Of a stretch of 44,675 nt of DNA, positions 2,959-39,621 are shown piece after piece. The notes under the pieces were generated by a model. That model made no database searches and was not told the DNA's origin. It saw nothing but the letters and a program-made list of their open reading frames with translations. Position 1 is the stretch's first letter. Every line of letters starts with the position of its first letter. The DNA is taken from NCBI GenBank assembly GCA_035707305.1, contig DASSUE010000187.1, positions 1-44,675 of the forward strand, read 5' to 3'. The translations under genes were made by a program, and so were the position numbers. Source of the DNA: Gemmatimonadales bacterium. GTDB lineage: Bacteria > Gemmatimonadota > Gemmatimonadetes > Gemmatimonadales > GWC2-71-9.

Positions 2959-2959
2959 G

Positions 2960-14100: not shown

Positions 14101-14125
14101 GAGGTGGACTCAGCAGGAGCCGCTC

Positions 14126-16297: not shown

Positions 16298-16376
16298 GCG
16301 GCGTGTGGTGAGCCATGCGACCGTTCTCACCTGACTCCAAGATACTGAATCGTCGTGAAATGACCTTGAATCGAGG

Positions 16377-19577: not shown

Positions 19578-19621
19578 ACGCTATGAGACCGGCCTGAAAC
19601 CGGCATGAACATTCCGGGAAC
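19578..19621 (-). promoter_or_regulatory. Candidate response-regulator box plus -10 for the BON gene (degenerate repeats)
   Basis: The minus strand reads GTTCCC-ggaat-GTTCAT-gccgg-TTTCAG-n10-TAGCGT. The period is exactly 11 bp. Confidence 0.4.
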
Positions 19622-21173: not shown

Positions 21174-21435
21174 CTGCAAACCATGGCTTGCATGCCGCGT
21201 TTCATCTCCGCTTCACGGGGGCGACATACGGACATGTCCGAGGCGAACGCTCGTCACTCTATTACGATCCGAATCTTGCTCATCGGTGCCCCGTTGAGAA
21301 TACGAGCGGTAAGGACGCCGTCGAGAAGCCGTCGGCGGCGAGATCGCGGCGAGGCCGCGCGAAGGCGGCTGTGAGCTGGCGAACGCCCTGTCACCGAACG
21401 ACCAGCGATTCCGTTGGCTGAGGTCTGCAAGGCAG

Positions 21436-21480
21436 TTTCCTCCCTGCTTCACCTGTTCTTCATGATCCCTGCTCCAATCT
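21436..21480 (+). promoter_or_regulatory. Candidate response-regulator box plus -10 for the P3 / phosphorylase / Prs operon
   Basis: TTTCCT (21436), CTTCAC (21447) and CTTCAT (21458), followed by an 11-nt spacer and CAATCT (21475-21480). The ATG is at 21510. Confidence 0.5.
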
Positions 21481-21509
21481 GGACGAGACCCCGATACAGG
21501 AGGACTCCG

Positions 21510-22001
21510 ATGTCGATGACGCTGACCGTCCGGTCCGAGTCGCGGCGGAGCGCCACTGTTGGCGACGTCCTCACTCCGCTGCACGAGCGTTGGCTCGCTG
21601 CCGTTGAGGCGGCAGTGCAACCCGCGCTGCTTGGTACCAGCACGATCTGGGACCGCTGGGCCGCCACGCGGTATCTCGAGGAGCGGTTCGCCACCAGACT
21701 GGAGCTGGAACTCTCCCTGGTGCGTCTGACTGACGTCAGCACTCGGGACCGCGAGCGGATCGAGGCCGATTACACCCGGATCGAGCAGCTCCGCGGCGCG
21801 ATCGAAGCAGTGGCCAGCCGGCATCACACGGGTGGGCTGATCATGTCCCTGCTGCAGGAGTTGCTGAGCTCGCTCACGGGCTGGGTGATCGATGTGGAGC
21901 AGGCGACCGCCCGGATTCCGCTTGCAGCGCTGCCCGGCGAGGCGGTCCGGCTGCTCACAGAACTTGAAGCCGACCCGTTGGAAACGACGGGGCAGCAGTG
22001 A
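21510..22001 (+). CDS. Uncharacterised P-family protein, copy 3
   Basis: The ATG at 21510 is preceded by AGGAGG. LTPLHERW..LLGTSTIWDRWAATRYL..SRHHTGGL..GWVIDVEQ..IPLAALP. Its stop overlaps the GTG of the next gene (GTGA at 21998-22001). Confidence 0.7.
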   Translation: MSMTLTVRSESRRSATVGDVLTPLHERWLAAVEAAVQPALLGTSTIWDRWAATRYLEERFATRLELELSLVRLTDVSTRDRERIEADYTRIEQLRGAIEAVASRHHTGGLIMSLLQELLSSLTGWVIDVEQATARIPLAALPGEAVRLLTELEADPLETTGQQ

Positions 22002-23533: not shown

Positions 23534-24492
23534 TCGTCCATTCTGCCGAGAATTCGCTGATTGCCGCGCTGCCGGGAAGCGAGCGGCTTGGGACCGATCT
23601 GGCCGAGCGACTCGGCGGCCGGCGTCAACTGGTCGAGATGCGGCGCTTCCCGGATGGTGAGTCGTACGTCCGAATCAATGGTCAGCTGCGGGACACACCG
23701 CTCGTGATCGTCGGACCGCTCGATCGACCCGACGAGAAGCTCCTGCCGCTGCTCCTCCTCGCCGCCACCGCACGCGAGCTCGGCGCCACCGAGGTGGGGC
23801 TGGTCGCACCCTACCTCGCCTATCTGCGGCAGGACCGTCGCTTCCGCCCCGGGGAGGCCGTGAGCGCGGTCCATTTCGCGAGGCTGTTGTCCGACCGCTT
23901 CGACTGGGTGGTGACTATTGAGCCGCACCTGCATCGCCTCCGAAATCTCGGCGACATCTACCAGGTGCCGGCCCGCGCGGTGAGTGCCGGACGGCTGATC
24001 GCCGCCTGGATTCGGGCCAACGTTCAGCGGCCCGTGATCATCGGCCCTGACGAGGAGAGCCGGCAGTGGGTGGAGCCGGTCGCTGCCGCGGCGGATGCCC
24101 CGTTCATCGTCGTGCGGAAATGCCGCGTCGGTGACTTCCACGTTGAGGTGTCGCTGCCGGACTTGGCAGCGTTCCGGGATCGAACACCCGTCGTTCTCGA
24201 CGACATCATATCAACGGGGGGCACGGTGGAGCAGATCGTTCGTATGCTGGTCGGCGCCGGATTTCCGGCTCCCGCCTCCATCGCGGTGCACGGGATATTC
24301 GCGGGCGACGCCTACGAGCGGATCGTCAACGCCGGTGCGAAGGTCATCGTGACCTGCAACACCATACCGCACGTGAGCAACGCTATCGATGTGACGGCTC
24401 ACTTAGCGGCAGCGGCGCGGGCGATGCTGGAGCGCACGGCGGAGGGATGGAACGAGCGTGCATCCCCGTCCGCAATCGCGGTGGAGCAATAA
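23530..24492 (+). CDS. Ribose-phosphate pyrophosphokinase (Prs)-family protein
   Basis: ATGA overlap with the upstream gene. Contains RRFPDGESYVRI, VAPYLAYLRQDRRF and the PRPP loop VVLDDIISTGGT. Confidence 0.8.
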   Translation: MIVHSAENSLIAALPGSERLGTDLAERLGGRRQLVEMRRFPDGESYVRINGQLRDTPLVIVGPLDRPDEKLLPLLLLAATARELGATEVGLVAPYLAYLRQDRRFRPGEAVSAVHFARLLSDRFDWVVTIEPHLHRLRNLGDIYQVPARAVSAGRLIAAWIRANVQRPVIIGPDEESRQWVEPVAAAADAPFIVVRKCRVGDFHVEVSLPDLAAFRDRTPVVLDDIISTGGTVEQIVRMLVGAGFPAPASIAVHGIFAGDAYERIVNAGAKVIVTCNTIPHVSNAIDVTAHLAAAARAMLERTAEGWNERASPSAIAVEQ

Positions 24493-24530
24493 CAGCTGCG
24501 GCCGGGGCCGCAATCGAGGCCTCCAAGATC

Positions 24531-25967
24531 TTAGCCTTTCACCACACCGATCGGCCGGAGGCGCGCAACCTTGCGGGCGAGGCCGGCCTGGTTCACGACG
24601 CTCACGACCCGTTCCACGTCCTTGTACGCGGTTGGGGCTTCCTCGGCGAGCTCGCCGCTGGACGGACACCGAACGACGATCCCCTGGCGCTCCAGCTCCT
24701 TGCGCACCTCCGCCCCTGCGCGGAGCCGCTTGGCTTCGCCCCGGCTCATGGCCCTGCCGGCTCCGTGGCAGGTGCTCCCGAAGCTCAGGCCGAGCGCCGC
24801 GTCGGTGCCGGCCAGCACATACGATGCCGTGCCCATGCTCCCGGGAATGAAGACCGGCTGGCCCACGGAGCGATAGCGTTGCGGTGTTTCCCGATGGGAT
24901 GGACCGAAGGCACGGGTGGCGCCCTTACGATGCACGCAGACCTGCTCGTCACCGTGCTGCTCGAGCTTGGCGATGTTGTGAGCGACGTCGTAGACCAGGG
25001 ACAGACATCCGGCATCGCCGAAGACACGGGAGAAAACGGTGCGGGCGCTGTGGGTGATCGCCTGCCGGTTGGACCAGGCGAAGTTCGCGGCGGCGCACAT
25101 CGCGGCGAAGTAGTCCTGGCCCTCGGGGGAAGCGAGCGGCGCGCAGGCGAGCTGCCGGTCGGGGAGCCGGATGCCGTAGCGCTCCATCACCTGGTCCATC
25201 AGGCGCACATAATCCGTGCACACCTGGTGACCGAGACCGCGCGAGCCGGTGTGGATCAGGACGGTGATCTGGTCGGCGTGGAGCCCGTACACCCGGGCCG
25301 CCTCGGTGTCGAAGATCTCGTCGACGACCTGCACCTCGACGAAGTGGTTTCCCGAGCCGATCGTGCCGAGCTGGTTGTGTCCCCGCTGCTTCGCGCGGGC
25401 GGAGACCTTGGCCGCGTCGGCGCCTGCGAGAGCGCCCCCCGCCTCGATGGTGGGGATGTCCTCGGGGAGCGCGAGTCCCAGCTCGGTGAGGTAGCCGCAT
25501 CCCTCCTGCAGGACGCGGTCGAGCTCGGCCGTTCCGAGGTCGAGTCGCGCGTGCCGGGCCGGGCCGGAGGGAATGCTCCGGCTCAGGTCGTGAACGGCCT
25601 CTTCGAGATGCTGGCGGGCGGCGGAAAGCTCGAGCGCAGAGGCGAGCAGGCGCACGCCGCAATTAATGTCGTATCCCACACCTCCCGGGGAGATCACGCC
25701 GTCGGCGGCACGCATCGCCGCCACGCCACCCACGGGGAAGCCGTAGCCTTCGTGCACATCGGGCATGGCGTAGACGCAGCCGGTCGCGCCCGGCAGCGTG
25801 GCGACGTTGACCGCCTGCTCCAGGGAGCGGTCATCCGCGATCTGCTGCCACAGCTCGTCATCGGCATAGATCCGGACCGGTACCCGCATGTCCGCCCGAG
25901 CGCTCACCGGAATCTCCCGGAGTAGCGGCGTGACTTGGACAATCGGGAACGGAGCGGCGTTGGTCAT
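24531..25967 (-). CDS. rtcB: RtcB RNA 3'-phosphate ligase
   Basis: The start at ATG 25967 makes an ATGA overlap with the archease stop. Long RtcB-typical blocks are present: AMPDVHEGYGFPVGGV, GGVGYDINCGVR, GSGNHFVEVQ, IHTGSRGLGHQV, NFAWSNRQ, HNIAKLE, KGATRAF, PGSMGTASY, CHGAGR. Confidence 0.95.
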   Translation of the reverse strand: MTNAAPFPIVQVTPLLREIPVSARADMRVPVRIYADDELWQQIADDRSLEQAVNVATLPGATGCVYAMPDVHEGYGFPVGGVAAMRAADGVISPGGVGYDINCGVRLLASALELSAARQHLEEAVHDLSRSIPSGPARHARLDLGTAELDRVLQEGCGYLTELGLALPEDIPTIEAGGALAGADAAKVSARAKQRGHNQLGTIGSGNHFVEVQVVDEIFDTEAARVYGLHADQITVLIHTGSRGLGHQVCTDYVRLMDQVMERYGIRLPDRQLACAPLASPEGQDYFAAMCAAANFAWSNRQAITHSARTVFSRVFGDAGCLSLVYDVAHNIAKLEQHGDEQVCVHRKGATRAFGPSHRETPQRYRSVGQPVFIPGSMGTASYVLAGTDAALGLSFGSTCHGAGRAMSRGEAKRLRAGAEVRKELERQGIVVRCPSSGELAEEAPTAYKDVERVVSVVNQAGLARKVARLRPIGVVKG

Positions 25968-26386
25968 ATGTCGAGGATGACCTCCGCTTCGATCATGCTG
26001 TTCACCTCGCGCACGTGCAGCGCATGCATCGTGGCCGCCTTGACCAGCCCTCTCACCTGCGGAACCTCGACGCCCCGCACCGTGGCCACCACCGACGTGC
26101 CGTCCGCGCGGTCTATCTGAAATTCCGTAGCGACCCACCGGTCGGTCTCGGCCAGGAAGATCAGCTCGTTCAGCCAGTCTACCAACAGCCGCTCGCGGTC
26201 GGGCGCGGTGAGCCGGAGTTGCCGGCGGCCCGCCGCGGGAGCCGAGTGGCCGCGCGGAAGCTGGAGTTCGGCGACCGCACGCCCCGATTCGGCGAGAAGG
26301 TCGGCGAACGACCCCGCCCGGACGCGAAGCTGAATCTCTGACGTATGGTCGATCAGCTCGTGGGAAGGGGCGGGCCCGTGGCTCAT
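25964..26386 (-). CDS. Archease (RtcB activator)
   Basis: About 140 aa from the ATG at 26386, with GAGGG upstream (the track ORF starts at GTG 26401). HELIDHTSEIQLRVRAGSFADLLAE matches the archease N-terminal H-T-A/S-D/E-I motif. Translationally coupled to rtcB. Confidence 0.8.
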   Translation of the reverse strand: MSHGPAPSHELIDHTSEIQLRVRAGSFADLLAESGRAVAELQLPRGHSAPAAGRRQLRLTAPDRERLLVDWLNELIFLAETDRWVATEFQIDRADGTSVVATVRGVEVPQVRGLVKAATMHALHVREVNSMIEAEVILDI

Positions 26387-26443
26387 GCCGCCCTCTCGCA
26401 CTTAGGCAAGTGCCCGGCGCAGGAGCGGGTGGCTTCGAGCGCT

Positions 26444-26553
26444 CCGGATTGTATTCCCGCGCGGTGTGATCGCACCACGAAGTTCACCGGCCGGAGCGCT
26501 GCGGGTCGGATGCGTCGCGAGCCATCCATCGCACGGCACGCCACCGCGCCACC
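26444..26553 (+). repeat. Copy 2 of the ~110-nt intergenic repeat (partner at 16188-16297)
   Basis: See copy 1. It fills almost the whole gap between the degraded USP gene and the archease gene, in the same absolute orientation as copy 1 although the flanking genes are on the opposite strand. Confidence 0.6.
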
Positions 26554-26555
26554 TC

Positions 26556-27485
26556 TCAGGCGAGCACCGGCGTGACCAGCACCGGCACATCGCTCCCGCG
26601 CACGACCTTGTCAGCCACGCTGCCAAGGACGAGACGCTCCAGCCCACGCCGGCCGTGTGTCCCCAGGGCGATCAGGTCTGCACCAGTCGTCCGGGCGAGG
26701 TCGAGCAGCTCGGCGGCGGCCGGCCGACCGACCACTACGTGAGTTTCGGTAGCAACGCCGCGGGCACACAGGTGCGGAGCCAACGGCTCGAGGAAGGCGA
26801 CTGCCGCGCGGTGTCGAGCCTCGATCCACTCTGGCCCGAGGTTTGGCTGGTGCACCGGCACCGGTGGGATTACCGGCGGCGGGGGTTCAACGACGTGCGC
26901 GAGCACGTACGATGTCGTACCGGCGAGCGCACCCACGGTGAGGGCGGGCTCCAGCACCTCCAGCTCGGCCCGCTCTCCGATGGCCACCAGGATGCGTCGG
27001 TACCCCGTGGCCGGCGGGCTATCGTGCGGCCGGAGCAACAGGATAGGTACCGCGACCGTGCGCAGCAGCCGGTCGGCTACGCTCCCCAACCACATCCGGC
27101 TGAACACGCCGCGCCCATGCGTCGTCATCACCACGAGCTCATCAGGTGGTCCCGCACATACGCGGCCAACCGCTCCGCAGGCGGGCCCTGCAGCAATGTG
27201 GCGGACACCGCGAATCGCTGGCCCTGACGTTTCCCGCTACCTGCTCCACGTAAGCCCGCATCGCGAGCGCGGTCTCCGCCTGTACCTGCTACGCCACCCC
27301 AGCGGCGTCGGAAGCGAGCACCAGGGGCGGCAGTGGGGGTTGGACCGTGACGAGGTGAAGGTGGCGCCGGAGCGCCGGGCCGCAGCGCAGGCGATTGGCA
27401 GCGCTTGCTCGGCGAGCGCCTGCCCATCGAGCGGAACCAGGAGCGACCGGAAACCGATCGCTGGGCGTTCCACCGCCCGGCTCAC
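26556..27485 (-). pseudogene. Tandem universal stress protein, degraded (three frameshifts plus one in-frame TAG)
   Basis: The frames read MSRAVERPAIGFRSLLVPLDGQALAEQALPIACAAARRSGAT | LHLVTVQPPLPPLVLASDAAGVA * QVQAETALAMRAYVEQVAG | KRQGQRFAVSATLLQGPPAERLAAYVRDH | PDELVVMTTHGRGVFSRMWLGSVADRLL... to [20 protein letters not shown]. Together they align with the intact paralog at 33717-34616. The pieces are track ORFs 27237-27485, the end of 27289-28104, 27128-27427 and 26556-27134. Confidence 0.7.
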
Positions 27486-28663
27486 CGGAACCGGAGGAAT
27501 CCCGCCAGCCCGTCGATCGAGCCAGCGAGCTCCTGATCGTCGATGACCATAACTTCCACGCGCTGGCGAAGCGCCTCTTCGAGCGCTTCGTCGACGAGAT
27601 CCTGTACCGCGGCCGGCGCTCCTTCACCCCGGCAGTCGCCCTTGGCGAGTACCAGGCGGCCGGTGTCGCCGCACCGGTAGCCGCTTCCGGTAAGATCGCT
27701 CCGCACGATGAGGGTGCGCAGTTGGCCGCGCGCAAGCGCGCGCAGCGTTTCGCGGGCATCGTTGACCGCCCAGCCGGCCCCCACCGCATTATCCAGTCTC
27801 CGCAGGAGGTCGGCGAGCATCCTCCCGTGGTGCTCCGCGGCGACCTCGAGTGCCAGCGCCTGAATTTCTGCGGGGGTGACGGCCCGTGGGTTCGCCCTGC
27901 GAGTCCCAAGCAGCCGCGCGGCGAGACGCTGCGGCAGGAAGCGACGGAGCGCAGCGGTGTGATCAGCAGGACCCACGAGCAGGAATCCACGATTCGGCGT
28001 ACCGGCGGCGACTGTTTCGAGCGCCTCGACCACCGCGGCGTAGTGTCGGTGCCGTTCCTCCTCGAGCCTGGTGTGATAGCGGTGCTCGCCCCAGCCGGGG
28101 GCATCGGCCCGGTCGGTAACGAACTTGCCCCCGCGCCGCGCCGGCGTGACCGGAGCCGGCAGCTCGACCACCTCGGTCGCGCTTGCCTGGAACACCCGGG
28201 CGTGCGTGCGGTCGACCGCGGCGACTACTACGGTGCCGAGGTCACGTTCCGCGGCCACGAGCTCCAGCAGCCAGGGTGTATCGTCGAGTACGACCCGGGT
28301 TCGGTGCACCCGCGGCAAAGGCACGAGCATGAAGAGATCCAGCGCTTCACACGCGAAGAGCGCCACTCCCCGGGTTCGCGGGAGGGCGGCCGGGCGCTCG
28401 AGGCCCGCAGTGATGCGCCCGAAGTCGCGCTCCACCGCCAGCCGTCGGTCCCGCGCGAGGCCGGTCAGATCGATGGCGCCCGCGCGCGTCTTGATCTCCG
28501 TGAGATAGCGACCCTGGGTGCGGTCGTCGGACTCGAGCCGTACGTAGCAGGAAATGACGTCGTACCGTCCCGGCTCGATCGCGGCGAGCTGCTTCAGTTG
28601 GGCGGCCAAGGCGGTACCTTGCGGCGGTTGCAGGGTCGGGGCGGCGAGTGTGGATGCGGACAT
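27482..28663 (-). CDS. eRF1/Pelota-like protein (bacterial aeRF1, 'baeRF' family)
   Basis: About 393 aa from the ATG at 28663 (the track ORF runs to 28747). The layout looks three-domain. The C-terminal ...VEVMVIDDQELAGSIDGLAGFLRFR matches the eRF1/Pelota domain-3 ending (GGIAAxLRY-like). A central RRGGKF loop occupies the position of the GGQ loop. GTGA overlap with the downstream USP pseudogene. Confidence 0.6.
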   Translation of the reverse strand: MSASTLAAPTLQPPQGTALAAQLKQLAAIEPGRYDVISCYVRLESDDRTQGRYLTEIKTRAGAIDLTGLARDRRLAVERDFGRITAGLERPAALPRTRGVALFACEALDLFMLVPLPRVHRTRVVLDDTPWLLELVAAERDLGTVVVAAVDRTHARVFQASATEVVELPAPVTPARRGGKFVTDRADAPGWGEHRYHTRLEEERHRHYAAVVEALETVAAGTPNRGFLLVGPADHTAALRRFLPQRLAARLLGTRRANPRAVTPAEIQALALEVAAEHHGRMLADLLRRLDNAVGAGWAVNDARETLRALARGQLRTLIVRSDLTGSGYRCGDTGRLVLAKGDCRGEGAPAAVQDLVDEALEEALRQRVEVMVIDDQELAGSIDGLAGFLRFR

Positions 28664-28754
28664 GGCTTCCGGGTCCTCGGCAGATGGTTGGCACCTGGCC
28701 GCCAACATGCGCCGACCAGGATGAGCCCGCGATGAAACCGCGGTCAAGATGCCT

Positions 28755-30158
28755 TCATGCGGGGGCGGCCGGCTGCCGGGCGCGGGGGAGCTCTGCCCGC
28801 ACCCTGAGCCCGCCTCCGTTCACCCGCTCGGCACGCACCTCGCCGCCGTGGAGCTCGATGATGGCCGCGACGAGCGTGAGGCCGAGCCCTGGGCCACTTT
28901 CTCGGCCCCGAGCCGAATCCGCCCGGAAGAACCGTTCGAACAGGTGGGGGAGGAGCTCGGGGGACACTCCCGGACCGTTGTCCTCGACGACCAGGCCGAT
29001 CGAGTCGTCGCTCGACTGGATGGACACCTCCACCAGCGTGCCGGGGGGTGTATGGCGCTTCGCGTTGTCGAGGAGCTGGTCGAGTGCGAGCCCGAGCAGG
29101 CGGGCATCGCCGATGAGCGGTGCCGCTACCATGGGCCGGGTGAACCGGAAGACGTGCGCTCCGATCCGCTGCTGCATCCGCCCCACCGCCCCGGCCGCCA
29201 CCTCGGCAAGCTCGACGGTGTCCCTCGCGATCTCGAGATCGCCGGATTCCAAACGCCCCAGCAAGACCAGCGCATCGCTGATGAGCGTCAGCCGCTCGAT
29301 CTCTTCCATGGCGCTTCCCAGCGTGCGCCGGTATTCGTCCGGCCGGCGTTCGCGCCAGAGAGCGACCTCGACGCCGGCCCGCAGCGCGGTGATGGGCGTG
29401 CGGAGGTCGTGGGCCAGATCCCGGATGATCCGGCGGTGCCAGACCGTCGCGTCCTCGAGGCGGCCAATCATCTCGTTGAGAACCTCGATGAGTCGGCGAA
29501 ACTCCACCACGTCCGCATGTGCCGTGATCCGCTGCGGCTGCCGCCCGCCGGTGACCGCCTTGGCCTGCGCAGCAATGTCCGCCACGGGCGTCAGCGCCCG
29601 GCGCGCGAGCCAGCTCGAGCCGGCGAACGTGGCGAGGGAAGCCAAGACGACGGTGATCACCATGAGCAGGATCATGCTTTGGAGGTCCTGTTGCAGGGGG
29701 ATCAGCGACATTGCGACCTGCACCACCTTGGCGTCGACCGGAGCACCCGGCGGCGCGGCCAGGTAGACGGTGCGAACCGGCTCGCCCTCCAACCGGCTCG
29801 TGGCCCACGCCGGTCCCCCGTTCAATGCGGTGCGGAAGCTGCCCGCATCCACAGTGAGCAATCGGGCCAGTGGCGAGTTTGCCTGAAGGATGCGGCCGTT
29901 GCTGTCCCGCACGACGACGAGTCGGTTGTACGCGCGGAGGGATCGTCGCCCGTCTACGTGGTCGCGATGCTCCGCGATCGTACGATGGGTGCTGAGCACG
30001 TCGACGATGGTCTGCCCCGCGGTGCGCAGCGTCCCGTCGAGCTGCCGGTGCACGATATGGCGCACACCCGCATAGGCCCAGAGCCCGATGAGCGTGAGGG
30101 CGCCGAACATCGTAGCACAGAAGCGCCGCTGAAGCGTCGCCCGGAGGGTGCGCGCCAT
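28755..30158 (-). CDS. Sensor histidine kinase (periplasmic sensor, HAMP, HisKA, HATPase_c)
   Basis: 467 aa with two TM segments flanking a ~150-aa loop. H-box RDLAHDLRTPITAL, N-box LDNAKRHTP, G-boxes EDNGPGV and GPGLGLTLV. Confidence 0.85.
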   Translation of the reverse strand: MARTLRATLQRRFCATMFGALTLIGLWAYAGVRHIVHRQLDGTLRTAGQTIVDVLSTHRTIAEHRDHVDGRRSLRAYNRLVVVRDSNGRILQANSPLARLLTVDAGSFRTALNGGPAWATSRLEGEPVRTVYLAAPPGAPVDAKVVQVAMSLIPLQQDLQSMILLMVITVVLASLATFAGSSWLARRALTPVADIAAQAKAVTGGRQPQRITAHADVVEFRRLIEVLNEMIGRLEDATVWHRRIIRDLAHDLRTPITALRAGVEVALWRERRPDEYRRTLGSAMEEIERLTLISDALVLLGRLESGDLEIARDTVELAEVAAGAVGRMQQRIGAHVFRFTRPMVAAPLIGDARLLGLALDQLLDNAKRHTPPGTLVEVSIQSSDDSIGLVVEDNGPGVSPELLPHLFERFFRADSARGRESGPGLGLTLVAAIIELHGGEVRAERVNGGGLRVRAELPRARQPAAPA

Positions 30159-30164
30159 CGTCGG

Positions 30165-30530
30165 TTAGCCTGCGTCATCCACTGTAAGGGCTTGCATCCG
30201 GTCGAGCAGTTCCTGAAAGCGGAACGGCTTGCTCATGAAATCGGTCGCCCCCGCCGCGAGCGCCTGTCGGCGGTCCTCAGCCGAATCCCGGGCGGTCAGC
30301 ATGAGGATGGGCACGCGCCCGCCCCGCGCGCGCAACTCCGCCGCGACCTCGGGGCCGCTCTTCACCGGAAGCATGAAATCGAGCAGCACGATGTCGTAGC
30401 GATGCTCCGTGGCCATAGCCAGCGCCTCGCCGCCATCGGCCGCACGGTCCACCTCGAATGCTTCCTCGCGCAGGCCCTGCTCCAAAAATCCCGCCACCTT
30501 GTGGTCGTCCTCGACGAGCAGCACCCGCAT
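30165..30530 (-). CDS. Stand-alone receiver-domain response regulator (OmpR-like receiver, no output domain)
   Basis: The ATG at 30530 is preceded by GGAGGG. The 121-aa protein reads MRVLLVEDDHKVAGFLEQGL...VLLDFMLPVKSG...ILMLTARD...KPFRFQELLDRMQAL and stops where the linker would begin. It aligns with the receiver of the full-length regulator at 39456-40154. Confidence 0.8.
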   Translation of the reverse strand: MRVLLVEDDHKVAGFLEQGLREEAFEVDRAADGGEALAMATEHRYDIVLLDFMLPVKSGPEVAAELRARGGRVPILMLTARDSAEDRRQALAAGATDFMSKPFRFQELLDRMQALTVDDAG

Positions 30531-30558
30531 GGATCCCTCCAGGGCTCCGGGCACGGGG

Positions 30559-31908
30559 TCAAACCTCAAAAGGATACGTCTCCGGCAGCTCCGCCTCACC
30601 CTTCTCCCAGACCGGTGTTCGCTCCAGCGGCTCGACCGCGCGCGAATGGTCGTAGTGCAGCACGGCATCGAACTGGCGGGGCAGCGTCGCGAAAAAATAG
30701 TGGCTCATCCGCTCAGTATCGGGCCGGTAGATCACCCCGATGGCCCGTTCCAAATGCGGCCCCACGAGAGCGGCGGCCAGCTCGCCCTGCCGCAAGTCGA
30801 GCAGGAACGCCGGCAGGCCGCAGTTGTGAAAGAGCGCTTCATAGCTGCCGGCCAGCGCGGGGCGCACCCGCTTCCGCTCGGCCGGGGAGTCCCAATCCGA
30901 GGCCGCCGTTACCGTTCCGGTGTAGGTGGTGAATCCCACGAGCACCGCGCGCGCTCCGAAACGCTCGCGAACGAGCTGCCCGAGGTTGAGCTCCCCGTGG
31001 GTGCCCATCTCGGTGGCGCGGGCGTTCCCCAGGTGCGAGTTGTGCGCCCAGACGACCACCTTGGCATGGCGGGCGTCACCACCCAGGAACTGCAGTACGG
31101 CGTCCAGCGTTTCGGCCATGTGCCGGTCTCGCAGGTTCCACGACTCGGTCCGGCTCTGGAACATCACGCGGTAGTACTGCTCGGCGGTGGCGACCACTCT
31201 CGCGTTCTGCTCGGCGAGGAACAGGTCGTCCGCTGCCAGGCGGCCATCCCTCCGGGCATATTCGGCCGCGGAGCCGCGCAGCTCGACCAGCTGCCGTACC
31301 ACCTCGGACTCGCACGACGGCGACAGGCCCAGCGTGGTGGCGTACCCATAGACCTGCGGGTCGGCGCCGAAATGGTCGAAGCAGGCGTACCGACGCTCGG
31401 CCCGCCGGGCCGCCTCCGGATCGGCCAGGCGAAGGTACTGCAGCACCGCCTGCATCGAGGCATGCAGGCTGTAGAGGTCGAGACCGTACACGCCCGCCTT
31501 GCCGCGCTCGTCGCTGATCTCGTCGTTGTGCTCGCGAAGCCAGCCGACGAAGTCGAGCATGTCGGCGTTTCGCCACATCCACTGCGGGAACCGGAGAAAG
31601 CCGCTCAGGGCCTCCGCGGCGTCGCCGTCAGCCGATCGTCCGCGCACGTAGCGATTGACGCGGTAGGCATCGGGCCAATCCGCCTCGATGGCGACACCGA
31701 GAAACCCCTTCTCGCGGATCAGCCGTTTGGTGATCTCGGCACGGATGCGGTAGAACTCGTGGGTCCCATGCGAGGCCTCGCCCAGCAGCACCAGCGGCGC
31801 CTCACCGATGCGATCCAGCAGGAGATCGAAATCGGCTGGAGAGCCGCGCAGCGGATGGGCGGTCTCGCGGACGAGTGCGGCCACGGAACGTGCGTCAGCT
31901 TCGGACAT
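30559..31908 (-). CDS. Erythromycin-esterase (EreA/ChaN-like) family protein
   Basis: 449 aa. LVLLGEASHGTHEFYRIRAEITKRLIREKGFLGVAIEADWPDAYRVNRYVRG is the family's N-terminal signature. First gene of the minus-strand operon that ends with rtcB. Confidence 0.8.
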   Translation of the reverse strand: MSEADARSVAALVRETAHPLRGSPADFDLLLDRIGEAPLVLLGEASHGTHEFYRIRAEITKRLIREKGFLGVAIEADWPDAYRVNRYVRGRSADGDAAEALSGFLRFPQWMWRNADMLDFVGWLREHNDEISDERGKAGVYGLDLYSLHASMQAVLQYLRLADPEAARRAERRYACFDHFGADPQVYGYATTLGLSPSCESEVVRQLVELRGSAAEYARRDGRLAADDLFLAEQNARVVATAEQYYRVMFQSRTESWNLRDRHMAETLDAVLQFLGGDARHAKVVVWAHNSHLGNARATEMGTHGELNLGQLVRERFGARAVLVGFTTYTGTVTAASDWDSPAERKRVRPALAGSYEALFHNCGLPAFLLDLRQGELAAALVGPHLERAIGVIYRPDTERMSHYFFATLPRQFDAVLHYDHSRAVEPLERTPVWEKGEAELPETYPFEV

Positions 31909-31951
31909 GCCTCGTAGGTACCAGCCGGGATCCTCTATCGCGGCGCCTCCA

Positions 31952-31985
31952 AGCCTATCCCACCCTCCATGAAGCCAGCATGATG
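31952..31985 (-). promoter_or_regulatory. Candidate response-regulator box plus -10 for the EreA-like operon
   Basis: The minus strand reads CATCAT-gctgg-CTTCAT-n11-TAGGCT. It ends 43 nt upstream of the ATG at 31908. Confidence 0.4.
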
Positions 31986-32021
31986 ACAGCTATAACGGGC
32001 GCTGCCTGATCGTGAAGGTTT

Positions 32022-32066
32022 CCTCACCGGAGCTTCATCGCCCGGTCAACGCTGGCGCGATAGCGT
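32022..32066 (+). promoter_or_regulatory. Candidate response-regulator box plus -10 for the groEL-USP operon
   Basis: CCTCAC (32022), CTTCAT (32033) and GGTCAA (32044), followed by an 11-nt spacer and TAGCGT (32061-32066). The ATG is at 32098. Confidence 0.45.
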
Positions 32067-32097
32067 GCGGAGGACACTCCAACCGCGGAGATCTCCA

Positions 32098-33720
32098 ATG
32101 CCGCACACGCATCTCATGCTCGAGGCCGCCGCCCGGGAAAAGGTTCTCCGAGGCGCGAGCGCCCTTGCCGACGCCGTACGGGTCACGTTGGGCCCGAAGT
32201 CCAAGTCGGTGCTCATCGGGAAGCGATGGGGACACCCGGTGGTCTGCAATGACGGGGTCACGATCGCGAAGGAACTGGATCTCGAAGACCCGGAGGAACG
32301 GCTTGGCGCCCAGGTCATCCGGGAAGCCGCCGAGCGCACCGGCGAGGCTGTGGGCGATGGTACGACGACCGCCACGCTGCTCGCGCATGCCATCTATGCC
32401 GACGGCGTTCGCAACGTCACCGCCGGGGCGAGCGCCGTCGACCTCAAACGCGGCCTCGAACGTGGGCTGCGGGCAGCCGTGAGCGCGATCCGTGCCTTGT
32501 CGCGCCCGGTGCAGACCACCCGCGAGAAGGAGCAGATCGCCACCGTCTCGGCGCACAATGACACCGCCATCGGCAAGCTCGTGGCCGATGCAATCGAGCG
32601 GGTCGGCTCCGAGGGGGTTGTGACGGTGGAGGAGGCGAAAGGAACCGAGACCGCGCTGGAGGTCGTCGAGGGGATGCAGTTCGACCGCGGCTATCTCTCC
32701 GCGTATTTCGTCACCGATACGGCCAGCATGGAGGCGGTGCTCGACGAGCCGCACATCCTGCTCCACGAGCGTCCGATCACCTCGATGCAGGATCTCCTTC
32801 CCCTGCTCGAAGCGGTGGCCAAGTCAGGCCGACCCCTGCTCGTTGTAGCAGAGGACATCGGGGGCGATGCGCTGGCAACGCTGGTCGTCAACCGGCTGCG
32901 CGGCAATCTGCCCTGTGTTGCTGTGAAGGCTCCGGGCTTCGGCGACCGCCGCAAGGCCATGCTGCAGGACATGGCGATCCTCACCGGCGGCAAGGTCATC
33001 GCGGAGGAGCTCGGCGTGCGTCTCGATCATGTGACCCTCGAGGAGCTGGGAAGGGCCAAGCGGGTTACTGTCACCCGCGAGAATGCAACCATCGTCGGCG
33101 GCGCGGGCGCGTCCGCGGCAATCGCGGGCCGATGCGAGGAGCTGCGGCGCCAGATCGCCGATACCACCTCCGACTATGACCGCGAGAAGCTCGAGGAGCG
33201 GCTCGCCAAGCTGGCCGGCGGCGTGGCGGTCATCCGGGTCGGCGCTCCGACCGAAACCGAAATGAAGAACCGTAAGGAGGCGTTCGAGGACGCCATCAGT
33301 GCCACCAAGGCAGCGGTGGCAGAGGGGATCGTGCCCGGCGCCGGCCTCGCCTTGCTCCGCGCGATTCCCGCTGTCGCCGCCGAGGAATCCGGCTGTGCGG
33401 GAGACGAACGGACCGGTCTGCAGATACTCCGGCGGGCGCTGGAAGCTCCGACGCGCCAGATCGCGGACAATTCGGCGATGGATGCCGGCGTCGTCGTGGA
33501 GCGCATGCGCGGCGGGAGCGGCGCCCAGGGGCTCGACGCGGCCTCCGGCACCTACGTGGATCTGATGGAGGCCGGCATCGTGGACGCGACCAAGGTGGTG
33601 CGGCTCGCGCTCGAGAACGCCGTTTCGGTGGCCAGCACGCTGCTCTTGACGGAAGCCACCCTTACCGAGATTCCGGAGCCAAAAGCCGACCGGACGCCGG
33701 GCGGGGATGACGGGCTGTGA
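32098..33720 (+). CDS. groEL: Chaperonin GroEL/Cpn60 paralog (no adjacent groES, no GGM tail)
   Basis: The ATG at 32098 has GGAG upstream. [28 protein letters not shown] and [14 protein letters not shown] are classic Cpn60 blocks. The C-terminus ends ...[14 protein letters not shown] instead of a Gly-Gly-Met repeat. GTGA overlap with the next gene. Confidence 0.9.
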
Positions 33721-34616
33721 AGAGCATCCTCGTGCCGCTGGACGGCTCGCCTCTGGCCGAACAGGGGCTCGGCTTCGCCGTCCCTGTGGCGCGCGCTGCC
33801 AGCGCCAAGCTGCGACTCGCCCTGGTGCATGAGCCGGCGGCACTCAAGAGCGGGGCCATCGTCCACCTTGAAGCGAGTCTCCGCCGGGCGGAGCGAGCGT
33901 ATCTCGACCGGACGGTTGAGCACCTGAAGCGGGAAGGACTCGCAGGGGTCACGTCAGTCGTGTTGACCGGGCGTCCCGGCGACGAGCTTGTTCGGCACGC
34001 CGAAGAACGGGACCCCGATCTCGTCGTGCTCGCGACCCATGGCCGTGGCGGACTCGAGCGGGCCTGGCTCGGCAGCGTCGCTGACCACCTCATCCAAAAC
34101 CTGACCGTACCGGTGGTAGCGGTGCATGCCACCGACCCACCCCCGGCCGCCGCTCCGGTCCGGCGGATTCTGGTTGCGCTGGACGGCTCGAGATCGGCGG
34201 AGACGGCGCTCGATCCCGCGAGCAAACTCGCGAGAGTGCTCGACGCGGAGCTGCTCGTTTGCCGTGTGGTGCTTCCCGTGCCACTGCCGGCCGATCCACT
34301 GCTGCCGGTGACGGTTGCCTACGATACCGAGCTGACCGCGGAGCTCGAGGCTGAAGCGGGACGCTACGTGGACCGACAGGTGCGGCAGCTCGTCGCGAGC
34401 GGGTTCCGCGCCAACGGGAAGGTGCTCGTGGGCGGCCCCAGGATCGCGCCCACTCTACTCCGCGCGGCCGACGAGGAGCGCGCCGGGCTGATCGCGATGA
34501 CAACGCGCGCCCGGGGCCGGCTGCGCCGCCTCGGACTCGGCAGCGTCGCCGACAAGGTGATGCGGGCCGCGCCCTGTCCCGTGATGCTCACCCGGGCCTC
34601 GAGGCGGGCGTCATGA
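33717..34616 (+). CDS. Tandem universal stress protein (2 x UspA domain), intact
   Basis: 299 aa. [15 protein letters not shown]...[25 protein letters not shown] and a second repeat [16 protein letters not shown]...[36 protein letters not shown]. Confidence 0.9.
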
Positions 34617-35632
34617 CCTGGCGACATGCCGGCGGGCTGCTCCTGCTGGCCCATGGGCTGGCCCACACGCTCCCCGGCATGCGGGCCGCTGCGGAGTTTG
34701 CGGTGCTTCCCACGGCTCTATGGGCAGTCGCGGTCGCGGGGTTCGCGGGCGCAGGTTTCGGGCTGCTCGGAGCCAGGGCCTTTTGCGCTCGATGGAGCGC
34801 CTGGGCTGCCGCCGGCGTGTCCGCATCGGCCTGGCTCCTGATCGGCACCTGGCCAACGCCGCTCGGACACGTGGGGCTGCTGACAGATCTGCTGGTCATC
34901 CTGCTCATCGCGCACCGGGGGGAGTGGCTGACCGACGAAGCCGCGCATCCACCGAAGAAGGTGAGACAGCGCCGCAATGCCTTCGCCATCGCGGCAGTCG
35001 CGGTCCTGACCGGGCTGGTGCTCGCGCGCGCCTGGCATCTGCGGTGGGGCTCTACCTCGGACGAGCTCCGGGCCGCCTGGCCCGGCGACGCGCTCGTGCC
35101 GAAGGCGAATTACGTGATCCAGCACGCAGTCACCATCGACGCGGCCCCCTCCGCCGTCTGGCCCTGGCTCGCCCAACTGGGTCAGGATCGCGGCGGTTTC
35201 TACAGCTATGCGTGGTTGGAGAACGTGTTCGGCCTCAAGATCCGGAACGCGGATCGCGTGCACCCCGAATGGCAGTCGATCAGCGCAGGTGATTCGGTGT
35301 TTGCCACCCCGCCACACTGGCTTGGCCTCGATCGGCGCCTCGGGTGGCGGGTGGGCTGGGTGGAACCCGGCCGCATGCTCCTTCTCGAGAACTGGGGCGC
35401 GTTCATACTGCATCCCGACAACGGTCGCACTCGGCTCATCGTCAGGACTCGCGGCGCTGCCGCAGACCGCCCTGTCGATCTCGCACTCGCGCCCATCGGC
35501 CTGGTGCTCTTCGAGCCTGCCCATTTTCTCATGCAGCGGAAGATGCTGCTCGAGATCAAGCGGCACGTGGAATCGAGTCGGCCCGCGCTGGCCGGGGATT
35601 ACGACTCGGCCGCCGCTACGATCGTGAAGTAG
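34613..35632 (+). CDS. Membrane-anchored SRPBCC-family protein
   Basis: ATGA overlap with the USP stop. The N-terminal ~130 aa are hydrophobic (LLLLAHGLAHTLPG...). The C-terminal domain has AVWPWLAQLGQDRGGFYSYAWLEN, typical of an SRPBCC subgroup. Confidence 0.55.
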   Translation: MTWRHAGGLLLLAHGLAHTLPGMRAAAEFAVLPTALWAVAVAGFAGAGFGLLGARAFCARWSAWAAAGVSASAWLLIGTWPTPLGHVGLLTDLLVILLIAHRGEWLTDEAAHPPKKVRQRRNAFAIAAVAVLTGLVLARAWHLRWGSTSDELRAAWPGDALVPKANYVIQHAVTIDAAPSAVWPWLAQLGQDRGGFYSYAWLENVFGLKIRNADRVHPEWQSISAGDSVFATPPHWLGLDRRLGWRVGWVEPGRMLLLENWGAFILHPDNGRTRLIVRTRGAAADRPVDLALAPIGLVLFEPAHFLMQRKMLLEIKRHVESSRPALAGDYDSAAATIVK

Positions 35633-36559
35633 GTGACGATCGAGAGCAGATCCTGCAGCAGTGTCGCCAGCGGGCCGCTCCCAAACGCCGGGTCCAGTCC
35701 GAGACGCCCCAGCACCAGGGGAGGAGCAGTGCGGCGGAGGTGGCAGTCGTGCAAGCAGCGCCGATAGCGAGCGCGATGGCGACAGCGAGCCCAGCATCTC
35801 CCCACCGCCACCAGATCAGCGGCCCAGCGGCTACGGCGAGGATGCCCCCGATGGCTGCGCCGGCCAGCAACTCGCGGAGGACCATCCGTCGCATCGGGAT
35901 GCCGATGGAGAGCCCCCGTACGGCGATGGTCCCGGTCTGGGTTCCCACTGCGTCGGCCAGGTAGACGATGCCCGGAAGGAAGAAGGCGAGGAGGACCGTG
36001 GCCCGGAGTTGGTCCTCGAACCACCCCACCACGTGCGCCGCCGCGGGCGCGCCCACCAGGCCGACATCAGCCATGGGAGGCGGTGGCGCACGCGCCGCCG
36101 CACCGGCTCCTCGCTCGTAGTCCGAATCAGCAGCTCGCTCCCCGTGAAGCCGCTGAGCCGGGAGAGATCTTCCTCGTGCTCCGCGAGCAGCATGGCCACG
36201 AGACGCCGGGGTGGTACCAGGCCCAGGAAGCGGCCGTCGGCGTCCGTGACGCACAGCGCCGTCTCGTCCTTGCGGACCGGCTGCCAGGCGGCGGCTTCCT
36301 CGTCTCTATCCGGGTTCACCACCGGCGGGTCACGATCCATAAGCGAGCTCAGCGGCGCGTCGCGTGGCGCCGCGAGCAGTGCCTCGATCGGGAGCAGCCC
36401 AGCCAGCCTTCCGCCGTCACACACCGCGACGTGGCTGGAGCAGTCGAACTTGCGGCCGAGCAGCGCTTCACGCACCGCGCCGGCCCGTTCGTCGGGCGCA
36501 GCGCGTGGCACCCGAGTAGCGAGACGATCGTCGGTCGTGCCTGGCTGTTCGGTCTTCAT
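35599..36559 (-). pseudogene. mgtE: MgtE-type Mg2+ transporter (CBS pair + TM domain, no N-domain), two frameshifts
   Basis: The CBS part and RVRHRLPWL lie in frame of track ORF 35831-36616. ADVGLVGAPAAAHVVGWFEDQLRATVLLAFFLPGIVYLADAVGTQTGTIAVRGL... lies in frame of 35616-36254. The C-terminus VLGRLGLDPAFGSGPLATLLQDLLSIVTYF lies in frame of 35599-36024. The junctions are near 36070 and 35720, the latter at a C4 run. Confidence 0.65.
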
Positions 36560-36945
36560 GTTCGGGCAACCTCTTTCGCGGCAGGTCTGGGTGCGTGCTG
36601 CGCTGATCGTGGTCATGGTGCTCCACGGTCGAGCCCACCTTTCCGGGGTTATCGTCGATTGGCGGCTCTCCCGGCTTGCCGAGCTGCGCTACCGCACGAC
36701 GCTCTCTGGGGCAGGCTCGACGTGGGTAACGGCGGGATGCGAATCATGGGTGCACTCTGGCTGGGGGCTGGAGTCGCATTCGAGGTCGCTGCCCTCGTGG
36801 CGGGCCTTGACCGCCCCCGGTGGCTGCCGGTCGCCATGGCAGCCGCTGCCCTGTCGCTGACGATCAGCATCCTGGCTGCGCCCGATGCTCTCGTCGGCGT
36901 CGCAGTCAACCTGCTCATCATCCCCGCGATTCTCTTCGTAACCGC

Positions 36946-37608: not shown

Positions 37609-37648
37609 GTCATCCCGTCATCCCGTCATCCCGTCATCCCGTCATCCG
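37609..37648. repeat. 8-bp tandem repeat GTCATCCC x4 plus one variant unit
   Basis: The sequence is gtcatccc gtcatccc gtcatccc gtcatccc gtcatccg. The last unit contains the ATPase stop codon (tca, 37642-37644). The minus strand reads GGGATGAC repeats. Confidence 0.9.
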
Positions 37649-39621
37649 GCGGCCCGGAGCGCGTTCAGGATAACGGCGACATCGACCGCCTCCTGGAGCA
37701 GCGCCCCCGCCACCGGTGACACGTACCCAGCGGCGGCGGCCACCATGGCAGCGGCGCTGAGACCGAGCCCGATCCAGATGCTCTGCCGAGCGATCCTCAT
37801 CGTCCGCCGGCTGATCTCCACGGCGTCGGCCAGACGCCCCGGGTCGTCTCCGAGAATGACCGCATCGGCGGCCTCCGCTGTGATGCCGCCTCCGCCACTG
37901 GCGAGCGCGACACCGACCGTCGCGACTCCCAGGGCCGGGGCGTCGTTGGTGCCGTCTCCGAGCATCACGACGCGTTCGCCTGCCGCAACCAGTGCACGCA
38001 CGGTATCGACTTTTTGCTCCGGCAGAAGATCGCCGCGGGCCTCATCCACCTGGACGGCGGCCGCCACGGATGCCACGTTGTCAGCCGCATCACCCGACAG
38101 AACGATCATCCGCCGCACCCCAAGCCGCCGTAAGCGCTCGATCAATGGGGACGCCCCAGACCGCACCGCATCGGCGTACTCGATGATGCCGGCCAGGTGC
38201 CCGCCGATAGTCACGTAGGCGCGGAGTCCACTGCCCGGCACGGGTGCCGGGGCTCCGCTCCCCGCGGTCGACGCACGGGCGGACACGAACGGCCAGGCGC
38301 CGACGGCCACCTCCTTGTCCTCCACCAGGCCGCTGACGCCCTGGCCGGGGGCTTCATTCACTGCCGCTGCGTTGGGTATCGCGATGCCACGGCGCACCGT
38401 CTCCTCCACCAGGGTACGGGCCAGGAGGTGCCCGGATCCCTGTTCGACGGCTCCCGCGAGCCGGAGCACCTCATGCTCGGTGAACGGCATCAGCGCCAGC
38501 ACCCGCGACACGGCGGGCCGGCCAAGCGTAAGGGTGCCGGTCTTGTCGAACACCGCCGTCGTGACCGAGCCCAGCTGCTCGATAGCCGTGCCGTGGCGGA
38601 AGATGACTCGGCGCCGCGCCGCCCGGTTGATGCCTCCCACCACTGCGACCGGTGCCGCGAGGATCAAGGGGCAGGGGGTGGCCACGACGAGCACGGCCAG
38701 CACTCGGACCGGGTTGTGGGACAGAAGCCAGGCCCCCGCGCACACGGCAAGCGTGAAGGGAGTGAACCAGATGGCGTAGCGGTCCGCCAAACGCTGGATC
38801 GGCGCCTTGCTGGCCTGAGCGCTTCGGACCAGCTCGACGATACGGGCGTACTGGCTCTCTCCGGCGGGGGCGAGGACGCGGAGCGTGAGCGGCCCTTCCA
38901 GGTTCCGGCTCCCGCTCAGCAGCTTGTCACCGGTACGCGCCACTCGGGGGATCGGTTCCCCGGTGAGCTGTGCCGCATCGACATGGGAGCGGCCATCGAG
39001 CACCACGCCATCGCAGGGGACGAGCTCGCCTGGGCGCACGAGGATCTCGTCGCCCGGCACCACGGCTTCCGCGAGCACATCGACAAGGCTATCGCCGTCC
39101 CGACGGTGGGTCACGCGGGGAGCATTCGCCTCGAGCTCTCTCACGGCGTCCGAGGCCCGACCGCGGGCGAAGGTTTCCAGCGCTTCGCCGCCCGTCTGCA
39201 TGAGTACGACAATGAGGCCGGGCAGCGGCTGACCGAGTAGCACGGCAGCCAGGATGGCGAGCGTGGCGACGAGATCGGCAGCGAAACGGCGGCCAAGAAC
39301 GCCGTGGGCGGTGCGCACCACGACCGGAAGTCCCGTGAGTACGAGACCAGCCATCCAGATGTGATGACCGAGCGGGGTGGAGCGGCCGCTCCCGATGACC
39401 AGACCGAGGGTGATGAAAGCAAGCACCGCTGCAGGCAGGACTGCGGAGCGGCGCGTCAGCCCTCTGGCGCGGAGACCGCGTTCGGAGAACGGCGCAGGCT
39501 GAACCCCACGCCGCGGATCGTCTGAATAAGCTGCTCCCCCGCGGCCTCCGCCAGTTTCCGGCGCAGGTTCCCCACGTGCACGTCTACCACGTTGCTCTCC
39601 GGATCGAAGTGCATGTCCCAT
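37642..39621 (-). CDS. P1B-type heavy-metal P-type ATPase with TPCP transmembrane motif (P1B-5-like), no N-terminal CxxC domain
   Basis: Motifs [24 protein letters not shown] and TM motif [13 protein letters not shown]. No CxxC metal-binding domain is present. The start is uncertain: the ATG at 39621 overlaps the upstream regulator gene by 166 nt, and the true start may be internal, before the first TM helix ([15 protein letters not shown]). Confidence 0.8.
   Translation of the reverse strand: [659 protein letters not shown]

Follow-up and report, generated by a model that had tools for sequence, protein, structure and literature searches.

The stretch of DNA considered here (the window; 44,675 nucleotides (nt), contig DASSUE010000187.1 of assembly GCA_035707305.1, G+C content about 68%) comes from a Gemmatimonadales bacterium and carries seven consecutive genes on the minus strand between positions 24531 and 31908. 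In the direction of transcription, they encode an EreA-like protein of the erythromycin-esterase superfamily, a stand-alone receiver, a membrane sensor histidine kinase, a protein resembling archaeal/eukaryal release factor 1 (aeRF1), a tandem universal stress protein (USP) that is now a pseudogene, archease, and the RNA ligase RtcB (Table 1). Gene calls were made with Pfam domains, and NCBIfam models with their cutoffs served as a second library. This gene content and order, given in a preliminary description of the sequence, have been confirmed by Pfam, and the two flanking modules it named, phosphoribosyltransferase (PRTase)–hydrolase and phosphorylase–Prs, are both present in the window. 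With the aeRF1-like protein as a query, 80 related genomic loci were collected, all of them (80/80) from Gemmatimonadota and mostly from Gemmatimonadales. The region is probably part of a stress or dormancy island built around a Balon-type factor, with units that would be co-regulated, and not a dedicated seven-component machine.

The aeRF1-like protein appears to be a Balon-type, putative ribosome hibernation factor. Its gene starts at the ATG at 28663 (393 amino acids, aa) and not at the TTG at 28747, as follows from the lengths of the homologues (385–398 aa). The best Pfam match is PF18854, baeRF_family10 (50.2 bits against a gathering threshold of 27.1), with families 3 and 2 close behind (40 and 39 bits); since the score is modest and close to those of the two other families, membership in family 10 is loose. 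A search of the Protein Data Bank (PDB) sequences with the single sequence returned nothing relevant, and only the family profile and the fold search succeeded. Among solved structures, the profile of 33 Gemmatimonadota homologues matched archaeal aRF1 (3e-7), the Balon proteins Msmeg1130 (7e-7) and Rv2629 (4e-4), and also Pelota. The AlphaFold2 (AF2) model (predicted local distance difference test, pLDDT, 84.7; predicted template-modelling score, pTM, 0.78) has the three-domain aeRF1-like architecture with N, M, and C/Pelota domains. When this model was compared with the PDB by Foldseek, six of the seven best matches were Balon structures (8v9j, 8v9l, 8rdv, 8rdw, 8rd8, and 8v9k) with template-modelling (TM) scores of 0.59–0.66. 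The top matches, which derive from Msmeg1130, Rv2629, and the Psychrobacter Balon, include 8v9j_z (E 3.5e-19, TM 0.60/0.65), 8v9l_z, 8rdv_B, and 8v9k_z (TM 0.62/0.66), and 8rd8_B gives TM 0.60/0.64; ribosome-bound, accommodated eRF1 reaches only 0.43–0.48, and Pelota is lower.

Neither the GGQ peptide-release motif nor the NIKS stop-codon recognition motif occurs in the 393-aa sequence. In the profile alignment, the GGQ of aRF1 (3agk) falls on the P-G-W of the loop RGGKFxxDRxDAPGWGE, in which RGGK corresponds to residues 177–180 and PGWGE to residues 189–193, and no Gln in this loop is conserved across the 33 homologues. The baeRF family 10 has been reported to keep a catalytic Gln (PMC6514570), but this residue is not present in the loop of the 33-sequence family studied here. 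The C-terminal domain of the model bears a two-strand insert (residues 322–355, strands 328–330 and 351–353), flanked in the alignment of the 33 homologues by an invariant pair of cysteines, C331 and C344, which could represent half of a degenerate zinc ribbon or a redox-sensitive pair. The insert agrees with the “two beta-strand insert/degenerate ZnR” described by Burroughs and Aravind, who assign a degenerate zinc ribbon to this site of the C-terminal domain (PMC6514570), and Helena-Bueno et al. have described a beta-hairpin at the zinc-ribbon site of the same domain in Balon (PMC10901736).

Thus, the eRF1-like call of the preliminary description holds in both the profile and the structure comparison. 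The assignment to a baeRF subfamily stands only in part: family 10 scores above its threshold, while families 3 and 2 are near and the expected Gln is missing. The RRGGKF loop, which was to be compared with GGQ-type loops, contains no GGQ, and the suggested action on peptidyl-tRNA is unlikely given the P-G-W at the GGQ position and the lack of a conserved Gln in the loop. Two further statements, that the biochemical function is unknown and that the baeRF families have been discussed only by comparative genomics, have been overtaken by the literature as far as the aeRF1-like member is concerned. Burroughs and Aravind (2019) had already delimited the baeRF-1 clade and connected it with hibernation factors (PMC6514570), and relatively recently it has been found that Balon proteins inhibit translation (Helena-Bueno et al., Nature 2024, PMC10901736). 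The latter study identifies Rv2629 as Balon and reports that Balon genes typically lie in stress-response operons, with RtcB named as a common neighbour. As both the function of Balon and its linkage with RtcB were published in 2024, the locus is a good new example of them.

The preliminary description had also presented the seven genes as one operon. The overlaps between the Balon-like gene and the USP (GTGA, 27485–27482) and between archease and RtcB (ATGA, 25967–25964) are real, yet a single seven-gene transcript is not established, as there are gaps of 91 nt between the kinase and Balon genes, where a regulator box with three half-sites is located, and of 169 nt between the USP and archease. 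Positions 24300–32200 were scanned with sigma-70 promoter and terminator consensuses, which may not suit this phylum. No match to the promoter was obtained there, and the hairpin 3′ of RtcB was the sole terminator-like site; one site against 2.4 expected by chance is not an excess, but it lies where a transcription unit could be expected to end. Instead of an “operon”, the stretch is better seen as three juxtaposed modules inside a larger, probably co-regulated island.

The element that would join these modules is a short direct repeat, TTCAY-N6-TTCAY. A generic k-mer search of the intergenic regions yielded GC-rich noise, in which the TTCAY repeat was spotted by eye and then tested. An initial pattern, TTCATC-N6-TCAY, was rejected as too narrow (only six matches upstream of Balon orthologues), and the final one was refined on the orthologous USP/GAF-kinase intergenic regions of other genomes. 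With at most one mismatch, it occurs at 24 sites in the window, while 2.66 are expected and the maximum in 100 shuffles is 7; none of the 24 lies inside a Pfam-supported domain. The repeat has an 11-bp period, often comprises three half-sites, and is mostly oriented as the gene, 50–85 nt upstream of EreA, Balon, GroEL, BON, USP3, and the phosphorylase–Prs unit. The box preceding EreA is situated within the 156 nt that separate the divergent genes EreA and GroEL, and that preceding Balon is a candidate operator and promoter for the latter. Moreover, four to five other genomes keep the box in the divergent USP/GAF-kinase intergenic region, and exact boxes show a 17-fold enrichment in the 200 nt that precede Balon orthologues. 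Elsewhere, boxes are found before archease (loci L001, L016, and L018 of the collection), before receiver–kinase (L060, L069), and before PRTase–EreA–hydrolase (L006, L069). Because boxes stand upstream of these units in the window and of their orthologues in other genomes, the units probably constitute one regulon in which Balon has its own promoter.

Direct repeats one helical turn apart are a hallmark of OmpR/PhoB-family regulators. Operators of this kind have half-sites spaced by 10–11 bp, lie shortly before or over the −35 region of several promoters, and have a regulator of the family encoded nearby. The boxes of the window conform to this arrangement, and the regulator is predicted to bind them. 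The likely regulator of the boxes is the OmpR/CopR-type protein encoded next to a GAF-domain histidine kinase (Table 1). Its orthologues are 76–88% identical across these genomes, and a block of GAF kinase, OmpR-type regulator, P-type ATPase, and USP accompanies Balon in L002, L008, L031, L037, L052, and L068. In the window, the kinase and regulator are followed by a P1B-type heavy-metal ATPase (37642–41423 for the three together; TIGR01525, 480 bits). The regulator and ATPase open reading frames (ORFs) overlap as listed, and their start sites need refinement.

Table 1. Positions of genes and regulatory sites in the window; boxes are matches to the TTCAY repeat
Feature	Position	Strand	Remarks
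EreA-like protein (erythromycin-esterase superfamily), 449 aa	30559-31908	minus	PF05139, 456 bits, 1e-136
Stand-alone receiver, 121 aa	30165-30530	minus	PF00072 only; no output domain
Membrane sensor histidine kinase, CztS/CopS-like	28755-30158	minus	2CSK_N-like sensor, HAMP, HisKA, HATPase_c
Balon-type aeRF1-like protein, putative ribosome hibernation factor, 393 aa	27482-28663	minus	PF18854, AF2 model, Foldseek
Tandem USP pseudogene	26556-27485	minus	N-terminal domain disrupted; start overlaps Balon stop as GTGA
Archease, RtcB activator	25964-26386	minus	PF01951, 89.5 bits, profile positions 2-136
RtcB 3′-phosphate/5′-OH RNA ligase	24531-25967	minus	PF01139, 563 bits, profile positions 1-426
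Terminator-like hairpin	24496-24513	minus	3′ of RtcB, between convergent RtcB and Prs
OmpR/CopR-type (CopR/CztR-like) response regulator	39456-40193	minus	Candidate island master regulator
GAF-domain histidine kinase	40212-41423	minus	One GAF + HisKA (PF00512)
Box ATCATGCTGGCTTCAT	31969-31984	minus	One mismatch; 61-76 nt upstream of EreA start
Box TTGAC-N6-TTCAT-N6-CTCAT	28721-28747	minus	Three half-sites, 11-bp spacing; 58-84 nt upstream of Balon ATG
Box	32023-32049		Upstream of GroEL
Box	19594-19620		Upstream of BON
Boxes	21201-21216; 21437-21463		Upstream of small-ORF/phosphorylase/Prs unit
Box	14057-14083		Upstream of ORF preceding PRTase-hydrolase
Box	41442-41457		Upstream of USP3, divergent USP/GAF-kinase promoter region
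Box	10882-10897		Upstream of YceI operon
Boxes	5481-5496; 5562-5588		Upstream of cupredoxin-nosZ operon, cupredoxin/Rrf2 intergenic region
Box	13230-13245		

The receiver and kinase genes upstream of Balon should be considered together with this regulator. The receiver-only protein keeps all phospho-acceptor residues and, over 115 aa, shares 58% identity with residues 14–128 of the island regulator, which is far above typical receiver–receiver similarity. It is a paralogue of the receiver of the regulator and looks like a duplicate that lost the DNA-binding domain. The 121-aa receiver is also encoded in the closest relative and has orthologues in L060 and L069; since it is kept in at least four genomes, the truncation is no recent accident. 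The kinase scores below the cutoff of TIGR01386 (226 versus 292 bits) and shows only 26% identity to the GAF kinase of the island. Such a dedicated pair inside the stretch had been regarded as unusual, and it is indeed present, but at least three other genomes also have it ahead of Balon, directly in L060 and with an intervening BON gene in L069. As the most economical hypothesis, we infer that the receiver and its own kinase bring a second signal, from the periplasm, into the same circuit, where the receiver might act as a phosphate sink or competitor or might form non-productive dimers with the regulator. Each of the two kinase systems of the island has relatives of the heavy-metal type, a hint that the signal may be related to metals.

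The composition of the stretch becomes clearer when compared with other genomes. In the closest relative found, a 27-kb JGI contig (JGI 3300056388) whose Balon is 91% identical, a divergent GroEL–USP pair is followed by EreA, the 121-aa receiver, the kinase, Balon (393 aa), an intact USP, and then convergent Prs and phosphorylase; archease and RtcB are not present at the Balon locus of this relative. The exact seven-gene order is found in none of the 80 Gemmatimonadota loci. Archease–RtcB forms a separate unit within 10 kb of Balon in five of the 80 (L001, L011, L015, L016, and L018), whereas chance alone would place a single-copy gene of a 4-Mb genome that close in about 0.4 of 80. The seven-gene stretch is a mosaic and not a conserved ensemble: archease–RtcB is lacking in the nearest relative, and EreA normally belongs to a PRTase–EreA–hydrolase trio. 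Many Gemmatimonadales possess two Balon paralogues on different contigs (L016/L017, L020/L022, L024/L033, L011/L043, and L015/L055), and around the more distant paralogue class (about 40–45% identity) none of the neighbours seen in the window was detected at the threshold used.

The USP following Balon is a pseudogene, as had been claimed. Compared with intact orthologues, it changes reading frame three times (at about 27362, at about 27220, and at 27143) and has a TAG at 27291–27289; the N-terminal USP domain is not spanned by any open frame, while a C-terminal ORF of 192 aa (26556–27134) is still open. In the closest relative, the USP at the same position is intact (311 aa). The archease gene begins with the ATG at 26386, which is preceded by GAGAGGG. 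RtcB scores only 204 bits with the E. coli-type model PRK09588 (cutoff 407) and is judged by this to be of the archaeal/eukaryal type rather than the E. coli type. The two proteins, both full-length and encoded by adjacent genes on the same strand, make up the bona fide ligase pair recognized earlier, which in this window follows the decayed USP, where it was either gained or kept.

A repeat of about 125 nt with the core GCGCTGCGGGNCGGANGCGTCGCGAGCCATC is present in two copies, at 26432–26560 in the USP–archease gap and at 16185–16315 in the hydrolase–Ldt gap. The former copy thus sits at the junction where archease–RtcB is present here and absent in the nearest relative. Significant RNA structure was found on neither strand of the repeat (z from −1.0 to +0.1); the repeat matches nothing in Rfam, and none of the 80 related loci contains a copy.

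The product of the first gene of the stretch belongs only to the Pfam Erythro_esteras superfamily. The possibility of a true macrolide esterase was rejected because the EreA, EreB, and EreD NCBIfam models give only 21–52 bits against cutoffs of 750–800. Its orthologue is located between genes for PRTase and an alpha/beta-hydrolase (DLH-like) in L003, L006, L018, and L069, adjoins both of them in L060, and adjoins the hydrolase gene in L010. In the window, PRTase–hydrolase is found at 14577–16051, apart from EreA, so that the EreA-like protein appears to be a relocated member of the PRTase–EreA–hydrolase module, now placed upstream of receiver–kinase–Balon. The trio, which corresponds to the fused proteins Rv2030c and Rv0571c of M. 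tuberculosis, is the least understood conserved part of the repertoire.

Aside from these genes, the island contains a GroEL paralogue, two further tandem USPs, a triple-BON protein, a TreT-like trehalose synthase, an archaeal-type thymidine/AMP-phosphorylase-like enzyme with a Prs paralogue, and the P1B-type ATPase. It adjoins an anaerobic respiration cluster (354–9051) that comprises nosF, nosD, nosZ (propeller and cupredoxin), a cupredoxin, a divergent Rrf2-family regulator, a short COX1-like fragment ORF (6047–6511), and the cytochrome c nitrite reductase NrfH/NrfA. Six ORFs (13290–13766, 14099–14614, 21414–22001, 34613–35632, 35661–36860, and 43141–43920) match neither Pfam nor NCBIfam; they have coding-like G+C content at third codon positions, some are preceded by a TTCAY box, and two (34613–35632 and 21414–22001) have counterparts on the contig of the closest relative. 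PADLOC, applied to the key proteins, assigned no defence system and gave only weak generic-domain matches (receiver, kinase ATPase domain). No RaiA/HPF neighbour was found in the window.

The reading of the region as a co-regulated island around Balon suggests the following picture. Under stress, the Balon-like protein, probably delivered by EF-Tu, would occupy the A site of ribosomes and keep them inactive and protected without release of the nascent peptide. Its synthesis would once have been translationally coupled to that of the tandem USP, since decayed in this genome. A periplasm-sensing CopS/CztS-like kinase and a receiver lacking a DNA-binding domain may feed a second signal into the circuit. 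Archease–RtcB would serve as a separate RNA-repair module that reseals tRNA or rRNA with 2′,3′-cyclic-phosphate or 3′-phosphate and 5′-OH ends. The units would be joined by co-regulation through the TTCAY boxes and not by a single transcript.

Several observations weigh against this reading. Identity to the characterized Balons is only 15–19%, and it is from these proteins that binding to the ribosome is extrapolated. The whole protein contains no His-Pro dipeptide, so the “HP motif” that Balon uses in the decoding centre was not located, and the conserved element PRVHRTR (H120) is a candidate for it. The NCBIfam model NF052289 (“Rv2629 family ribosome hibernation factor”) gives 53.4 bits, far below its cutoff of 320, and NF052287 (AOC03_06830-family) gives 45.7 against 330; judged by these scores, the protein is a distant relative and not a member of either equivalog family. 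The loop aligned with GGQ is invariant in length and strongly conserved across the 33 homologues, and a conserved catalytic loop of fixed length has been tied to catalytically active families, family 10 being possibly active (PMC6514570). As for the regulation, the box precedes Balon in only nine of 79 loci, mainly those of the closest orthologues; the pattern was partly derived from the window itself; and the pairing of regulator and box is based only on proximity and the repeat architecture. Finally, archease has no box with at most one mismatch upstream in this genome, so that archease–RtcB may be transcribed by read-through from Balon or from a promoter that escaped recognition; the 169-nt gap holds a box candidate with two mismatches.

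A more specific version of the co-regulated island is possible, if tentative: the region might be a Gemmatimonadales analogue of the DosR regulon, independently assembled by means of a CopR/OmpR-type regulator, a GAF kinase, and TTCAY boxes, in which the receiver, coupled to its own periplasmic kinase and encoded immediately ahead of Balon, would serve as a decoy or a second input that gates ribosome hibernation by Balon and RNA repair by RtcB–archease.

It has also been considered whether the locus encodes coupled ribosome rescue and repair resembling PrfH–RtcB2, so that the factor would recognise ribotoxin-jammed ribosomes, RtcB–archease would reseal the cleaved rRNA or tRNA, and the kinase/receiver pair would sense the attack. 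The proximity of RtcB–archease to Balon in five of the 80 loci, well above the chance level, speaks for this, as do the same neighbours in the mycobacterial Rv2629–Rv2631 block (PMC5309233), the conflict-driven rescue proposed for baeRF-1 proteins and RFH–RtcB (PMC6514570), and the unusual conservation of the loop at the GGQ position. However, peptide release is hardly to be expected from a protein with neither GGQ nor a conserved Gln, and the solved Balon complexes represent hibernation and not rescue (PMC10901736). Archease–RtcB, moreover, is missing at the locus of the closest relative and forms its own unit elsewhere, no defence-system models match, and the surroundings consist of general stress genes with no toxins or mobile elements. 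Coupled rescue and repair is therefore unlikely.

It seems quite unlikely, too, that the adjacency is largely incidental, i.e., that unrelated stress genes have gathered in a rearrangement-prone island and that Balon, the two-component pair, EreA, and RtcB are functionally unlinked. Gene order does differ in almost every genome examined, archease–RtcB behaves as an insertion or deletion relative to the closest relative, the USP is decaying, and a two-copy repeat is found at the USP–archease junction. On the other hand, the same families recur around Balon orthologues far above chance, a common upstream motif is conserved across species before several units, and receiver–kinase–Balon is kept in four genomes. 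Finally, that the protein is a catalytically active alternative release factor or peptidyl-tRNA hydrolase freeing stalled ribosomes under stress, as predicted for baeRF family 10, is very improbable: its best Pfam match is to that family, flagged as keeping the catalytic Gln (PMC6514570), and its fixed-length loop with RGGK is strongly conserved, but the 33 sequences share no Gln in the loop, the GGQ of aRF1 aligns to P-G-W, the family membership is loose (50 bits versus 39 and 40), and the structural neighbours are Balon proteins.

The proposed co-regulated island around a Balon-type factor can be placed among the known systems. Balon was described only in 2024, and the locus offers a tractable hypothesis for its regulation in a little-studied phylum abundant in soil. 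What it adds is a candidate operator, a decoy-like receiver, and the recurrence of a dormancy toolkit across phyla. With the Balon factors (P. urativorans Balon, Msmeg1130, and Rv2629), the protein has in common the three-domain aeRF1 fold, the absence of GGQ and NIKS, and the two-strand insert of the C-terminal domain, and the genes share a stress cluster with RtcB, USPs, and chaperones, as well as several paralogues per genome. It differs from them, apart from the low identity, in the lack of the HP dipeptide, the longer conserved loop, the pair C331/C344, scores below the cutoffs of the Rv2629 and AOC03_06830 families, and the lack of a RaiA/HPF neighbour in the window.

Like the RtcB–archease operons described by Desai et al. 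(2014, 2015; PMC3973293, PMC4604427), the pair studied here has archease in front of RtcB with an overlapping stop and start, and RtcB of the archease-dependent archaeal/eukaryal type. Its context is different, namely, a bacterial stress island 3′ of Balon–USP in place of tRNA splicing or the RtcR-regulated rtcBA. PrfH (RFH)–RtcB2 similarly links a release-factor-like A-site protein genetically to an RtcB ligase. PrfH, however, has the bacterial release factor fold with GGQ, whereas the protein encoded here has the aeRF1 fold without GGQ, and its linkage to RtcB is loose and missing in the closest relative.

The resemblance to the DosR regulon of M. tuberculosis, noticed in the preliminary description, is real at the family level (PMC5309233, PMC4410610, PMC10901736). 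Rv2623–Rv2631 make up DosR block 8, in which Rv2631 is RtcB (PMC5309233), and Rv2030c combines PRTase with an erythromycin-esterase-superfamily protein (PMC4410610). The DosR blocks compared (Rv2623–Rv2631, Rv2028c–Rv2032, Rv0569–Rv0574c, and Rv1996–Rv1998c) have in common with the island Balon, RtcB, tandem USPs, PRTase with an EreA-like protein (Rv2030c), PRTase with a hydrolase (Rv0571c), a P-type ATPase, and a GAF sensor kinase, and both are multi-operon regulons, here a proposed one, beside anaerobic respiration genes. Rv2630 is presumably an archease. At the same time, the phylum is another one, and the fusions of M. tuberculosis are separate genes here. The regulator is of the OmpR/CopR type with direct repeats spaced by 11 bp, whereas DosR is of the NarL/LuxR type with palindromic Dev boxes, and the kinase has one GAF domain and HisKA, while DosS/DosT are haem kinases with tandem GAF domains. 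The members found only here are the GroEL paralogue, BON, TreT, the AMP/thymidine-phosphorylase-like enzyme with Prs, and the decoy-like receiver with its own kinase. With a regulator of another family and operators built differently, the island is an analogue of the DosR regulon and not its orthologue. The tuberculosis dormancy repertoire, comprising Balon, RtcB, USPs, the PRTase/EreA-like/hydrolase proteins, and a P-type ATPase, thus recurs in an unrelated phylum under a regulator of a different family, and this recurrence argues for a general bacterial quiescence toolkit.

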